The position numbers and the translations under genes were made by a program. The notes beneath the pieces are model-generated. The model did not search any database and was not told the origin of the DNA. It worked only from the letters and a program-made list of their open reading frames with translations. 64,000 bases of DNA from Escherichia phage Sa157lw: sequence record OK322699.1; one strand, written 5' to 3'. Every line of letters begins with the position of its first letter. Positions within the stretch are counted from its first letter, which is position 1. Below are positions 5,580 to 62,303 of the stretch, one piece after another.

Positions 5580-5924
5580 ATGACTACAAGAATCCCACCG
5601 CAGTCGATTGAAATCTCGAAGGTCGTCAATATCGAACCTCGTCGAGGAACCCGTAAACCCCGCGCGGGGCGTCATCTGACCACCAAGCTGGATCTTCTGA
5701 AACAGAAGTTCGGCGACCACAGTGTGTTTACCCGTATCCGCAACGCATTAAAGGAAGGGCGAACCGAGTTGGAGCTATATCGTCCGAACGGTTCGACTCG
5801 AGCGTATCAGACCACCGACGGTTTGCTGGAACTGATCCGCCTATCAGGGATGAACATAGAACCCCGTTCATCAGGAACCCCGCTATGCAGCCTGTACGTC
5901 ATCAGCAATCTTGGGGCGCTGTGA
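5580..5924 (+). CDS. hypothetical protein
   Basis: 114 aa ORF. Confidence 0.4.
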   Translation: MTTRIPPQSIEISKVVNIEPRRGTRKPRAGRHLTTKLDLLKQKFGDHSVFTRIRNALKEGRTELELYRPNGSTRAYQTTDGLLELIRLSGMNIEPRSSGTPLCSLYVISNLGAL

Positions 5925-5929
5925 GTTCT

Positions 5930-6352
5930 ATGAAGAAGTATATCGTTCTTATAACGGGTTCCCGTTCTATAACTGAGCGGGACAAAATATTTGCCAAATT
6001 AGATGAACTCTTAATCCCTCACGAGATAGAGACGTTTATTGAAGGTGAAGCAGTGGGTGTGGATCTGATATCCCGTGATTGGTGTGAAATCAATTATGTG
6101 CATATCACACCAATGCCGATTCCTCAAAATTACCATACGTTATATGGGAAAGGTGCGGGCAATCAACGTAACAAAGATATGCTGGACAAGGCTCTAACAT
6201 TGGCGAAGCAAAAAGATCTTGAGGTCTTTGGAATTGCATTATGGGATGGTTCGTCTACTGGGACGCAAGACATGATCAAGCGCATGAAGAAAGCGGGAAT
6301 AAATGTCAATATCACTCTCATGGGCAAACCCAAAACCAAACGATTGTTATAA
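5930..6352 (+). CDS. Rossmann-like SLOG/DprA-LOG-like protein (DUF2493-like)
   Basis: ORF trimmed to MKKYIVLITGSRS; motifs ITGSRS..GEAVGVD..DGSSTGT resemble SLOG family. Confidence 0.35.
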   Translation: MKKYIVLITGSRSITERDKIFAKLDELLIPHEIETFIEGEAVGVDLISRDWCEINYVHITPMPIPQNYHTLYGKGAGNQRNKDMLDKALTLAKQKDLEVFGIALWDGSSTGTQDMIKRMKKAGINVNITLMGKPKTKRLL

Positions 6353-6382
6353 ATAAATTTGCCACCCATGAGGAGTTATACC

Positions 6383-55944: not shown

Positions 55945-56748
55945 TTAAATGAAAATTTCAGTGACACTGTTAAATTTGACTTCATGTTCTTTCCCACACG
56001 AAGGACATTTAATTTTCGTCGCGTAACGGATACGAGGAATCTTTTTAAAGAAATCGTCGGATATATCTTGAACAATCTCAGATTCAATATTTTCCCCCAC
56101 CCATTTAACAAATTCATCTTTGACGCGTTGACGTTCTTTAGCAACATCAGGTGCTATGCCAGGCTCTGCCGGATTCTCTACTTTCCAAACCTGACCATCA
56201 TCGTCATACAAACAATCAATAAATGTCGCGATCATTTGCTCCACAGATGATGCTTCGTTGAGCACTGAGGCGTCCGAGAAGGACGGTTGACGCATCTTGA
56301 TGTGATAGCCACCAGGGAGGTCAAATGTTTCCCTGAAGCCTTCTGGGGACACGCATTTCACTTGGTTGAGGGGGATCGGTAAAACAAGTTCTTGACCACA
56401 TTCTTTAAGGCCAGAAACTGGTTCTTCACCTTCATTTGTGTCGGATGGAACTTTGTTGTTACATTTGTATCGTATCTTCATGACCTCGCCGATAGATATA
56501 CAGCGCATCTTTAAAAATACTTCTTCAGTAACACCGATTGGCAGTTTACTAAAGGGAACCCCAGCGTCAACACAACTATCAAACAGTTGCTCCAGCGTCG
56601 CCACACGTTCACTCATAGGAGTGTTCGGATCAGCAACCTGAAGTAACATGGTCTGTTGCCCTGCTGTGAAAGCGCGGTATTTAATCACCGTCGGCCAGAA
56701 ATCACTTTTGTGTGTTCTCTCAGTTTTGGGCAATGATGGTAAATTCAT
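55945..56748 (-). CDS. putative baseplate-associated protein with C-terminal zinc ribbon
   Basis: ORF 55945..56841 trimmed to MNLPSL behind GGAG RBS; co-oriented upstream of gp5; KCPSCGKEHE motif. Confidence 0.4.
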   Translation of the reverse strand: MNLPSLPKTERTHKSDFWPTVIKYRAFTAGQQTMLLQVADPNTPMSERVATLEQLFDSCVDAGVPFSKLPIGVTEEVFLKMRCISIGEVMKIRYKCNNKVPSDTNEGEEPVSGLKECGQELVLPIPLNQVKCVSPEGFRETFDLPGGYHIKMRQPSFSDASVLNEASSVEQMIATFIDCLYDDDGQVWKVENPAEPGIAPDVAKERQRVKDEFVKWVGENIESEIVQDISDDFFKKIPRIRYATKIKCPSCGKEHEVKFNSVTEIFI

Positions 56749-56797
56749 AATGTATCTCCACGGTATATTGTAACCATATTTATAATGAGGACCGAAA

Positions 56798-57322
56798 ATG
56801 CACGCGTTCTGTTTCAGTAAAGTTGGAGAACAACTTACCATTAATTATCCGGATACAAATACGGATTTCTTTGTATTGCTAACGGATTTCGCAAATAAAT
56901 TGGGGATCAAGAATATCGCCATGACTGTGGACGATATGAAATTTGGTCGTCTGGGTGTAAAAGATTTATTGAATTACGGATTCAACGTAATCATCGTCGA
57001 TCAGACATACAGCCCAATTGACGAGGAAGATGTTATTCCAGTTTGGGTTCAACGAGACATAAACACTCTGGATAAGCATTATCCCGATTGTGTCATCATT
57101 GGCGAATTAATACCATATTTTCATAAACGTCGTCGGCTTGAATCAATTAAAAGTTATTTTCAAGATAGCGATGACGGATATAAAATGGATGTCCTTACGA
57201 GCGGTTGGGTTGTGAAGAATACCACAGGCAATGCCGACCGAATTACTTCCCGTCTTTATGAATATGTTAAAGAACGGGATTATGAACTGGAGAACAATAA
57301 TGCCAAACGTAGAACGCGCTGA
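56798..57322 (+). CDS. hypothetical protein
   Basis: 174 aa, divergent from the baseplate cluster, GAGGA RBS. Confidence 0.4.
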   Translation: MHAFCFSKVGEQLTINYPDTNTDFFVLLTDFANKLGIKNIAMTVDDMKFGRLGVKDLLNYGFNVIIVDQTYSPIDEEDVIPVWVQRDINTLDKHYPDCVIIGELIPYFHKRRRLESIKSYFQDSDDGYKMDVLTSGWVVKNTTGNADRITSRLYEYVKERDYELENNNAKRRTR

Positions 57323-59534: not shown

Positions 59535-60572
59535 ATGGGTAACTTATTTGATCGTCTTAAACAATCTCGTGGCCAACAAGCCGAAGCCATGCAACAGCGT
59601 CTCGCTCAGCAAGGTCAGCGTGTTGGTGGCGGTCGTGACCCGCGCATCTGGAAGTGGACTTGGAATGAAAAAGGCACTTCCGAAAACATTATTCGTTTCC
59701 TGCCTATCCCTTTAGTGGACATGAAGGCTCAAGAAGAAGGCACCATCCCTGAAGATGCTGTGTTAACTCCATGCGCCATGATCATGAAACACGCTTTCCA
59801 GGGTGCTGGCGGCTGGTATATCGAAAACTCACCTCAGACTTTCGGTAACGATGATCCGGTTCGTGACCATGATCGTCCTCTGTGGGCACAACAGAAAGAA
59901 ACGAACGATGAAAAACTGAAGACGGTCCTGAAAAAACGTCTGCCGGACACCAAATACTACGCCAACATTCTAGTGATCAAAGATGGCAATAATCCGGAAA
60001 ATAACGGCAAGGTCTTCTTGCTGGAATTCGGTAATGCCGTCAAGAAAATCCTGGATTCGGCTCAGAATCCTAAGTTCTCAACCGACCCGAAATTCGACCC
60101 GTTCGATATGTGGGAAGGTGCGAATCTGATTCTTAACCTGTTCGGCGAAGAGAAAGAGTTCGGAAACTGGAAAGGCCTGGTTGCCAACTTCACCAACGTG
60201 AAGTGGGATAGTCCGGCACCGCTGGGAACCGACGAATACATTGAAGAGATCTGGGAAAAAGAGCACAGCTTGTTTGAGTTCTTTAATCCGGCCAACTTCA
60301 AATCGTACGAAGATCTGGAAAAACGTTTGCGCAAAGTTCTGGCCATCCCTGATAATCAGCCTCTGGTTGAAGGTGGTGCTTCTACTATGGCACATGCGCC
60401 TACCCAGTCTCAGGAACCCCAGCGCCCGACAGCGCAGGAAAGCCTGAACCAACAACAATCTCAGCCTTCTAATGCACAGCAATCTGTTCCAGCCAATAAT
60501 GGTGGTGCGGGTGCCGATGCGAAACAGACGGCTTCCATTGATGAGTTCGAGCAGTTCCTGAAGCAAGACTAA
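59535..60572 (+). CDS. 32: single-stranded DNA-binding protein gp32
   Basis: YYANILVIKDGNNPENNGKVFLLEFG aligns with T4 gp32 core; acidic C-terminus. Confidence 0.85.
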   Translation: MGNLFDRLKQSRGQQAEAMQQRLAQQGQRVGGGRDPRIWKWTWNEKGTSENIIRFLPIPLVDMKAQEEGTIPEDAVLTPCAMIMKHAFQGAGGWYIENSPQTFGNDDPVRDHDRPLWAQQKETNDEKLKTVLKKRLPDTKYYANILVIKDGNNPENNGKVFLLEFGNAVKKILDSAQNPKFSTDPKFDPFDMWEGANLILNLFGEEKEFGNWKGLVANFTNVKWDSPAPLGTDEYIEEIWEKEHSLFEFFNPANFKSYEDLEKRLRKVLAIPDNQPLVEGGASTMAHAPTQSQEPQRPTAQESLNQQQSQPSNAQQSVPANNGGAGADAKQTASIDEFEQFLKQD

Positions 60573-60580
60573 TTTCACTA

Positions 60581-60608
60581 AAGCCCCTTCGGGGGCTTTT
60601 TAGTTTTT
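60581..60608. terminator. bidirectional terminator AAGCCCC ttcg GGGGCTT flanked by T-run (+) and A-run (-)
   Basis: sits between convergent gp32 and the minus-strand gene ending at 60600. Confidence 0.7.
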
Positions 60609-61739
60609 AACGACGTCTTGTAACAAACCGAGTAAACTACTCTTCTCAGACGCCGTCAGGTTATCATTGCCTAATATATCCCTCTGGATGCCGATAGAGA
60701 TCCTTTCGAAGTCTGCCAGGCTGATACCCGCCAAATTATTTACAAGCTGATCGAGTTGCTTGTAGGCCAGTAGGGCTTCACCTGTAAAGTTCCCTTCCTT
60801 AATCTTTTTATACAGCTGTCCGGCTTTTGACGCTGCGGTTTCCCAATCTCCGGAAGCAAGAGCATCAGCAATGCCCAAAGGAAGAAAGTCGCTGGCGAGG
60901 CTGCGCGTTTCATATTCAGTCTCCGATAATACTTTATTGTAAGAGAACGATATATTGTACTGGTTAAATTGGTCGGCGGCACTTTTGTCGAGGTCGATGG
61001 AACTGAAGTTAATAGGATGAGCCTCCGTCACATAAACACGGTGCACCACCTGGTCTTCTGTATCCATTTGCTCTATACAAATATCAGTCACGAAATCTTC
61101 GTAATAACCCATCTTGGTCGTATATGGGTCGAATATCAAATTCTTCCATTTATCCATGACCGACTTTTCATAATAGTCGTTGGCAAGGAGAAATGATAAC
61201 TCCAGATCAACGTTTGTTTTGTTGTTCGGCATCTTAATATGGTTGCCGTTATTTGTCATTGGCGTTGTATCAATCCCAGTACCAGGCAAAGAAGCAACCA
61301 TACACATCATTTGTAAGGAACGAGACGTCTGGTTTGTCCCTCCAAAGAAAGCGTTTACAATACGGGCGCTTTGTTTGAACAGATCCCCAAATGATGAAGA
61401 TGAAGGATATGCGTTGCCGTCATTGGATAGAGTCGCATTAGAATCGAAAATACCAGGCGGCAACGGGATTGTAACACGAAATCTGTTCTTGCGGGAAATC
61501 CCCCGCTGAAGCAGTTGCGTTAGAAAATTGCGATAGTCTTCCACGATGAGGACTCCATTTAAATAATATATCTGCTGATATTTATAAGGAGTTGACAAAT
61601 GGCCAAGAACGCTATGGGTGAAGAAGACCCGTTGTTGCTTCCTGCCGAGATGGACGCCCCAGAATTGGTCAAGCGTTACATCCGCAAATATCGTCAACAT
61701 TTTGGACCAGAAGCGAAACGTAATATCCGTCGGTCTCAC
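60600..61739 (-). CDS. hypothetical protein (start uncertain)
   Basis: 379 aa maximal ORF; N-terminal ~140 nt overlaps the + gene at 61599, so true start is probably internal (candidates near 61310 or 61259). Confidence 0.4.
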   Translation of the reverse strand: MRPTDITFRFWSKMLTIFADVTLDQFWGVHLGRKQQRVFFTHSVLGHLSTPYKYQQIYYLNGVLIVEDYRNFLTQLLQRGISRKNRFRVTIPLPPGIFDSNATLSNDGNAYPSSSSFGDLFKQSARIVNAFFGGTNQTSRSLQMMCMVASLPGTGIDTTPMTNNGNHIKMPNNKTNVDLELSFLLANDYYEKSVMDKWKNLIFDPYTTKMGYYEDFVTDICIEQMDTEDQVVHRVYVTEAHPINFSSIDLDKSAADQFNQYNISFSYNKVLSETEYETRSLASDFLPLGIADALASGDWETAASKAGQLYKKIKEGNFTGEALLAYKQLDQLVNNLAGISLADFERISIGIQRDILGNDNLTASEKSSLLGLLQDVVKN

Positions 61740-62303
61740 GTGTGGTTTATGGAACGCGTATCGAAAGATGCCAATTTATCCCCCAACCACATGATGAAGG
61801 CGTTTGCTGAAAATAAACGTCCTGTTCAGGGTGTGCGCTATATTGTTGGTCGCATGTACTATTTCAAATATGATGCGCTGACCAAAGATGAACTCCCGTA
61901 TTGGGATATGTATCCTCTTGTATTCTTCTTCAATTTTGTGAAGGGTGACGGGGTAAAATTTGGGGAACGTGGTGTGACCTATCTTTATGGTCTCAACCTT
62001 CATTATTTGCCACCAAAGCTCAGATTATTAGTGTTTGAAGATCTTATCAAGTTGAGGAACGAAAGAGCGTATCGTTCTAAAACTCGTTTGAGACTTACTT
62101 GGGATGCCCTGAAACGGTTCGCCAATCACCCTCTGTACAACCATTGTGTGAAACTGTACCGCGCTGATCAATTTCGTTCACAGCTTTATGAGATTGAGCC
62201 TCAATACTGGGAAGTTGTTTTGTTTATGCGCACTGCTCGATTCCAGAAACAGAGCCAGATGTCTGTTTGGAAAGACGCTCGTCGTAAACACAAAAATGGT
62301 TAG
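61599..62303 (+). CDS. hypothetical protein
   Basis: 234 aa, TAAGGAG RBS. Confidence 0.45.
   Translation: MAKNAMGEEDPLLLPAEMDAPELVKRYIRKYRQHFGPEAKRNIRRSHVWFMERVSKDANLSPNHMMKAFAENKRPVQGVRYIVGRMYYFKYDALTKDELPYWDMYPLVFFFNFVKGDGVKFGERGVTYLYGLNLHYLPPKLRLLVFEDLIKLRNERAYRSKTRLRLTWDALKRFANHPLYNHCVKLYRADQFRSQLYEIEPQYWEVVLFMRTARFQKQSQMSVWKDARRKHKNG

Follow-up and report, generated by a model that had tools for sequence, protein, structure and literature searches.

The analysed window, a stretch of 64,000 nucleotides of Escherichia phage Sa157lw (sequence record OK322699.1), carries three adjacent genes at the locus considered here. The first, encoding a gp32-like single-stranded DNA-binding protein (59535..60572, plus strand), matches the gp32 family of Pfam (PF08804, E 2.3e-66) and phrog_224 (E 2.9e-102). 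It is convergent with the tail-tube coding sequence, which occupies 60600..61544 on the minus strand, ends in a TAA stop codon at 60602-60600, and would encode a T4 gp54-like baseplate protein of 314 aa and 35.07 kDa. The third gene, divergent from the tail-tube gene, encodes a gp2-like DNA end protector of 234 aa (61599..62303, plus strand; phrog_429, E 1.1e-69); its homologues carry PF26869 (Phage_T4_gp2) in precomputed annotations, and gp2 is annotated as such in Salmonella phage Maynard and in phage Vi01. The Shine-Dalgarno sequence of gp2, AGGAG, is seen in the sequence at 61587..61591 (plus strand), is annotated as a ribosome-binding site in Maynard, and abuts a TATAAATA box on the minus strand. 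Between the convergent gp32 and tail-tube genes, a terminator scan found an intrinsic terminator at 60580..60599 (plus strand), a GC-rich hairpin followed by a T-run, which is also an annotated terminator in Maynard. The terminator hairpin stops one base short of the tail-tube stop codon, and the T-run is present on the plus strand only.

Over a 2-kb region around the ORF, the window is 99.9% identical to Maynard and 99.6% identical to Vi01, and in the tail-tube region phage Sajous1 is 99.3% identical to the window. Judged by nucleotide sequence, the source phage is a Vi01-like Kuttervirus of the Ackermannviridae. The region is matched by 270 phage records, from phages of Salmonella, Klebsiella, Escherichia, Dickeya, Serratia, and Shigella. 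One matching record, OR844944.1, is a 38.5-kb unannotated sequence named 'Enterococcus phage Efm 3-10' with 91% identity to this Kuttervirus region, and one 'Pseudomonas' phage record matches the region too; both are probably mislabelled or contaminant sequences.

The minus-strand frame of the tail-tube gene remains open upstream of 61544, and the ORF listing gives a GTG-initiated maximal ORF of 379 aa at 60600..61739. An earlier note on this DNA had drawn attention to the overlap of this maximal ORF with the gene that starts at 61599; the overlap is indeed present, with 61599-61739 common to both ORFs, and amounts to 141 nt where the note gave 140. The note had also labelled the minus-strand gene convergent, which holds only for its 3' end, where it meets gp32; with the gene at 61599 it is divergent, the 5' ends adjoining. 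Relative to the tail-tube coding sequence, the maximal ORF carries a 5' extension of 65 codons (61545..61739, minus strand), made up of the intergenic stretch 61545-61598 and of the antisense shadow of gp2 at 61599-61739. Across the start, a product of the extension frame would read ...YLNGVLIVEDYR, with valine rather than methionine at the GTG codon.

A probable GTG start at 61544 and the open frame upstream

The GTG codon is codon 66 of the maximal ORF (61542..61544, minus strand), lying 195 bases inside it, and is preceded at a spacing of 8 nt by the Shine-Dalgarno sequence GGAG (61553..61556, minus strand). This GGAG is an annotated ribosome-binding site in Maynard, with a homologous site in Klebsiella phage Magnus. 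In a survey of every in-frame ATG, GTG, and TTG in the first 230 codons of the maximal ORF, the GTG at 61544 was the only start codon with a GGAG at good spacing. The in-frame ATG codons are found at 61700, next at 61310, and then at 61307, 61301, and beyond. The earlier note had remarked that none of the internal ATG codons has a convincing Shine-Dalgarno sequence, and we agree, the best match being the 3-nt GGT; the note had weighed ATG codons only, and non-ATG starts were left out of its survey.

The same codon marks the N-terminus of the protein family. The product of the maximal ORF matches phrog_3629 ('tail tube protein') with an E-value of 9.3e-180, and positions 2-313 of the 313 in the profile correspond to residues 67-379 of the ORF. 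Because profile position 2 aligns to residue 67, the first residue of the family falls on the GTG codon. When the full 379-aa ORF was used as the query against a large protein database, 27 homologue clusters were recovered; in 25 of these the length is 312-323 aa and the coverage of the query ~81-83%. The two exceptions in length are P0001, an identical 379-aa call, and P0021, a truncation of 236 aa. The extension 61545-61739 is covered neither by the phrog_3629 profile nor by the homologues, P0001 being the 379-aa call itself. The N-terminus M-[EQDS]-D is common to 13 aligned full-length homologues, down to 55% identity.

At the nucleotide level, the start region was aligned for nine genomes from five genera (Kuttervirus, Taipeivirus, Limestonevirus, Agtrevirus, and Miltonvirus). 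The GTG start is kept in all nine of these Ackermannviridae, and the GGAG in eight, with GGGTGG found in Serratia phage 3M. Four distant metagenomic relatives (L012-L015) share the same gene order of gp2, tail-tube gene, and gp32, and at the homologous start position have an ATG (L012 and L014) or a GTG (L013 and L015). Dickeya phage JA15, Shigella phage Gloob, and P46FS4 each carry an in-frame TAA 11 codons before the GTG, and no start codon intervenes. An in-frame stop likewise precedes the start by 4 codons in Serratia phage 3M; for L012, L013, and L014 the distance is 14, 7, and 4 codons, respectively, and in L012 and L014 no other start separates this stop from the start codon. In Taipeivirus, a 1-nt indel shifts the sequence upstream of the start into another frame. 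By contrast with these stops, 77 codons remain open before the GTG in the two Kuttervirus sequences, the window and CBA120. All told, the extension is frame-shifted or stopped in seven of the nine genomes, and in L012-L014.

Downstream of the GTG, the picture is that of a conserved coding sequence. Over the first 47 codons, comparison of the window with eight relatives gives amino-acid identities of 34-46 out of 47, with a bias of substitutions towards third positions in the minus-strand frame. The layout in the window, a GGAG, an 8-nt spacer, and a start codon conserved at the N-terminus of the family, is that of standard Shine-Dalgarno-led initiation. An N-terminal sequence for the tail-tube protein was not found in the literature on these phages. 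Translation would initiate at GTG 61544, using the GGAG 8 nt upstream, to yield a structural protein of 314 aa. It is thus very probable, on comparative grounds, that the tail-tube gene comprises 60600-61544 on the minus strand, with a conserved GTG start, a normal Shine-Dalgarno sequence, and no overlap with gp2.

In the overlap stretch itself, substitutions follow the reading frame of gp2. For the seven relatives outside Kuttervirus, 20-26 of the 25-42 substitutions in 61599-61739 are on third codon positions of gp2, and across all eight relatives 37-47 of the 47 gp2 residues encoded there are identical. In the antisense frame, the seven non-Kuttervirus sequences share 21-28 of the 47 residues with the window and CBA120 shares 40, and the antisense frame of the overlap is interrupted by stop codons in Dickeya phage JA15 and Serratia phage 3M. 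The relatives do not show two frames that are both open and both under purifying selection. A genuine antisense overlap was rejected, since the frame is not kept open, the antisense identity is low, and the changes fall on gp2 third positions.

The length of the open antisense frame can be accounted for by codon usage. Codons 1-47 of the extension are the in-register antisense of the first 47 codons of gp2, and a stop in such a frame needs a sense TTA, CTA, or TCA codon, none of which occurs in this part of gp2; the first in the gene is codon number 60. These three codons make up 2.3% of the codons in the long ORFs of the window, so that an in-register antisense frame is expected to run for 47 codons without a stop with a probability of ~0.33, and no special explanation is needed. 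In the window, 123 of 422 in-register antisense runs are at least 47 codons long. The 65 codons upstream of the GTG would thus be open by chance. The comparative data indicate that the extension 61545-61739 is not translated, and that the tail-tube gene and gp2 are divergent genes that do not overlap and are separated by a control region of 54 nt.

Of the three alternatives raised by the earlier note, two are in essence correct, namely an N-terminal part that is not translated and a non-ATG start, in the form of a GTG with an ordinary Shine-Dalgarno sequence; the third, a genuine overlap of genes on opposite strands, goes against the comparative data. The view that only experiment could define the start was too pessimistic. 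Frame conservation in relatives, a check that the note had itself proposed, settles the start with high confidence, as the gp2 frame is kept, the antisense extension is not, and the tail-tube frame is kept from the GTG onwards; in addition, GenBank records already annotate the GTG.

Putative late-promoter boxes in the divergent control region

The candidate late promoter of the tail-tube gene is TATAAATA at 61586-61579 (minus strand), which matches the T4 late-promoter consensus exactly and lies 34 nt upstream of the GTG. Of the 13 relatives compared, 12 have an exact TATAAATA on the minus strand, and Dickeya phage JA15 has TATAAGTA in its place. In the window as a whole, three exact copies of TATAAATA were found where 1.7 are expected; with no enrichment, the argument for a promoter rests on positional conservation and not on frequency. 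From this conservation we infer that TATAAATA at 61586-61579 is the late promoter of the tail-tube gene. A scan of 60400-61900 for sigma-70 promoters found none in the intergenic region.

T4 late transcripts begin ~6 nt past the box. By the same rule, the tail-tube mRNA would most likely start ~6 nt downstream of TATAAATA, near 61573, and would have a leader of ~29 nt carrying the Shine-Dalgarno sequence. The box sits downstream of every upstream start candidate (61739, 61700, 61697, and 61598), and with an mRNA start near 61573 all four of these would be off the late transcript.

A possible late promoter of gp2 is provided on the plus strand by TTTAAATA (61558..61565), which is one mismatch from the T4 late-promoter consensus and 33 nt upstream of the gp2 ATG. 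The position of this plus-strand box is conserved, and is occupied by CATAAATA in both L012 and L013 and by the exact TATAAATA in the case of L014. The 54-nt region 61545-61598 is nearly symmetrical, in that each box abuts the Shine-Dalgarno sequence of the opposite gene and the box-to-start distances are 34 and 33 nt. If both boxes are late promoters, the predicted transcription starts would nearly coincide (~61571-61573), and the polymerase binding sites would overlap.

A second such layout occurs elsewhere in the window, where TATAAATA at 56784-56777 (minus strand), a GGAG, and an ATG at 56748 precede the baseplate gene Maynard_131 (55945-56748, minus strand), whose start at ATG 56748 is that of the Maynard annotation. 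The same artefact is seen there again, with a maximal ORF at 55945-56841 (minus strand) overlapping the divergent gene 56798-57322 (plus strand) by 44 nt. The third exact TATAAATA in the window (6348-6355, plus strand) coincides with the end of the ORF 5885-6352, which is one of a run of small co-directional genes, and is not obviously before a structural gene.

Vi01-like phages encode homologues of gp55, gp33, and gp45 (PMC3184105, PMC3121705); in the Vi01 record, the gp33 homologue is an annotated gene immediately upstream. In 2011, the CBA120 paper described the late-promoter sequence of ViI-like phages as still unidentified (PMC3184105). The compact divergent control region may represent a minor lead on late transcription in Vi01-like phages.

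Rival starts and the annotation record

The start codons that compete with GTG 61544 each have a counterpart in public annotations, and each is set against the evidence above. Translation from GTG 61739 or ATG 61700 would give a protein of 366-379 aa whose first 34-47 codons truly overlap gp2. The frame is open in Kuttervirus (the window and CBA120), and the 379-aa version is annotated in GenBank for SeF3a and AR2819 and is present as P0001. However, neither codon has a Shine-Dalgarno sequence, both are upstream of the conserved late-promoter box, and the extension that they would add is outside the family profile and is frame-shifted or stopped in other genera. Its antisense conservation is at the level of a by-product of gp2 third-position changes, in a frame that could readily be open by chance, and such a start is given next to no credence. 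No better placed is TTG 61598, which adjoins the gp2 ATG and would give 332 aa. This codon is in frame in the window, and the Klebsiella phage 0507-KN2-1 record in GenBank has a comparable call of 336 aa, with an annotated TTG start in the neighbourhood. Here too there is no Shine-Dalgarno sequence, and the codon is upstream of the TATAAATA box; moreover, its 18 extra residues are not conserved, because of 1-nt indels between genera and stops in Dickeya, Agtrevirus, Miltonvirus, L012, and L014. We regard initiation at this TTG as extremely improbable. At the other extreme, initiation at an internal ATG (61310, 61307, or 61301) would yield a truncated protein of ~235 aa, as in the 236-aa GenBank annotation of Dickeya phage JA15, which recurs in 9 other database sequences (P0021). 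These are the first in-frame ATG codons downstream of 61700, but they have no Shine-Dalgarno sequence, and their use would discard 78 strongly conserved residues that are covered by the family profile. The discarded stretch includes the 47 codons with 34-46 identities and third-position changes, and many of its columns are invariant down to 55% identity, which leaves a truncated product with a negligible probability.

The remaining rival differs in that it would add to the 314-aa protein rather than replace it. Two isoforms could be made in Kuttervirus, a main product of 314 aa from the late transcript and a minor, N-terminally extended product from read-through or antisense transcripts over the 5' region of gp2. 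In favour of such an arrangement, both the window and CBA120 have the 77 open codons upstream, and T4 makes several products via internal starts in genes 17, 21, and 26, according to the T4 annotation. Set against this, no upstream start has a Shine-Dalgarno sequence, the extension is unconserved, the open frame is expected by chance, and no transcript running antisense through gp2 is known. Two isoforms are considered very unlikely, if slightly less so than the single rival starts. An equally low probability is attached to a joint reading, in which a rare, Kuttervirus-only isoform of ~43 kDa, its first residues antisense to gp2, would be made from a non-late transcript, and in which, separately, the two boxes would be back-to-back late promoters with mutually exclusive polymerase binding. 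If back-to-back late promoters did exist, gp2 and the tail-tube protein would show coupled expression.

The single GTG start at 61544 thus remains the preferred reading, and it is the one annotated in Maynard, Vi01, CBA120, Gloob, P46FS4, Serratia phage 3M, and Magnus, with Maynard adding the GGAG ribosome-binding site. Across Ackermannviridae records (L004, L005, L006, L018, and L019), five different start calls are found, giving products of 379, 336, 314/315, 292, and 236 aa, the 292-aa version being the GenBank annotation of IME250. Two of these versions have passed into protein databases, that of 379 aa as cluster P0001 and that of 236 aa as cluster P0021. The spread of annotated starts results from the preference of gene callers and annotators for an ATG codon or for the longest ORF. 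The question raised by the maximal ORF belongs to the known pitfalls of gene calling and has no unusual biology behind it, and the start is already known from existing records. The comparative evidence supports the GTG start, with a product of 314-315 aa, for the Ackermannviridae compared, in five genera. Correcting the starts would remove a spurious antisense overlap of 141 nt and several truncated baseplate proteins from the databases, an outcome that would carry little weight for biology and somewhat more for annotation practice.

The tail-tube protein and comparison with known systems

The protein belongs to phrog_3629/PF23849, a family of tail-tube-like baseplate proteins of the Ackermannviridae and relatives. 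All 27 homologue clusters, the identical P0001 among them, carry PF23849 (Phage_TTP_2) in precomputed annotations. Local scans with Pfam and NCBIfam gave no significant family for either the tail-tube protein or gp2, PF23849 and PF26869 being present in the precomputed annotations only. A sub-threshold Pfam match to Phage_T4_gp19 (E 0.0078, with 16.5 bits where the cut-off is 28.2) covers the same region as the match to gp54. In searches of the PDB with phmmer and hmmsearch, only T4-type gp54 chains matched, with E-values of 8e-4 to 5e-3 over residues ~94-216. Alignment with hhalign against T4 gp54 gave a probability of 83% and an E-value of 9e-6 over 89 columns, and comparison with T4 gp48 (3.6%) and gp19 (0.3%) gave no match. 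The protein is closer to T4 gp54 than to gp48 or gp19, by a match that is modest and confined to the central domain. An AlphaFold2 model built from a 14-sequence alignment had a mean pLDDT of 44.6 and was unusable, and neither the PDB sequence searches nor the literature yielded a solved baseplate from the Ackermannviridae.

Orthologues of the protein have been detected in phage particles. In Sajous1, the 'baseplate tail tube' protein gp25, encoded next to the single-stranded DNA-binding protein gp24, was represented by 24 spectra in LC-MS/MS of CsCl-purified virions (PMC10892097). In LIMEstone1, the gp54-like ORF50 product, listed at 35.06 kDa, was detected with 7 unique peptides and 24.5% coverage (PMC3296691). 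The computed mass of the GTG-start product is 35.07 kDa for the window and 35.09 kDa for the Limestonevirus relative, against 42.8 kDa for the product of the maximal ORF. The LIMEstone1 value of 35.06 kDa is a mass calculated from the authors' annotation, and reflects their choice of start. By the sequence matches above, the tail-tube protein is a T4 gp54-like baseplate protein, and it is found in virions of related phages.

Among Kuttervirus phages, the orthologues are Maynard_140 (YP_008770967.1), Vi01_066 ('Gp54-baseplate tail tube', CBW37934.1), and CBA120 orf081. The window shares 99.6-99.9% DNA identity with Maynard and Vi01 and ~91.5% with CBA120, and in all three phages the CDS has the same 945 nt, the homologous GTG, and the same neighbours (gp32, tail-tube gene, and gp2). 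There is no difference of substance between these orthologues and the gene in the window, and only the product names vary (tail tube protein, gp19, gp54, or baseplate hub).

The best match in T4 is gp54 (PDB 5IV5 chain W and 9UFN chain C), the initiator, or junction, protein of the baseplate tail tube, with a size of 320 aa as compared to 314 aa here. The hexameric ring formed by gp54 in T4 is placed between gp48 and the first ring of gp19, and is needed to start polymerisation of the tube. By analogy, the tail-tube protein would most likely form the ring by which the first tail-tube ring is joined to the hub and tube cap. The two proteins are alike in being virion components (here for the orthologues described in the literature) and in having a TATAAATA late-promoter-type box upstream of both genes. 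They differ in that only the central ~90-120 residues align, with ~21% identity, and the N- and C-terminal thirds are without detectable similarity. The genetic context differs as well, as in the hub operon of T4 gene 54 comes directly behind gene 48, whereas the tail-tube gene stands alone here between gp32 and gp2.

The extension of the maximal ORF, for its part, resembles the shadow ORFs of other genes, in that its first 47 codons are in-register antisense to gp2 and are without independent selective constraint. It differs from them in that the shadow shares its frame with a real same-strand gene on the far side of the 54-nt intergenic region, and for this reason appears as a 5' extension of that gene and not as a separate spurious ORF.
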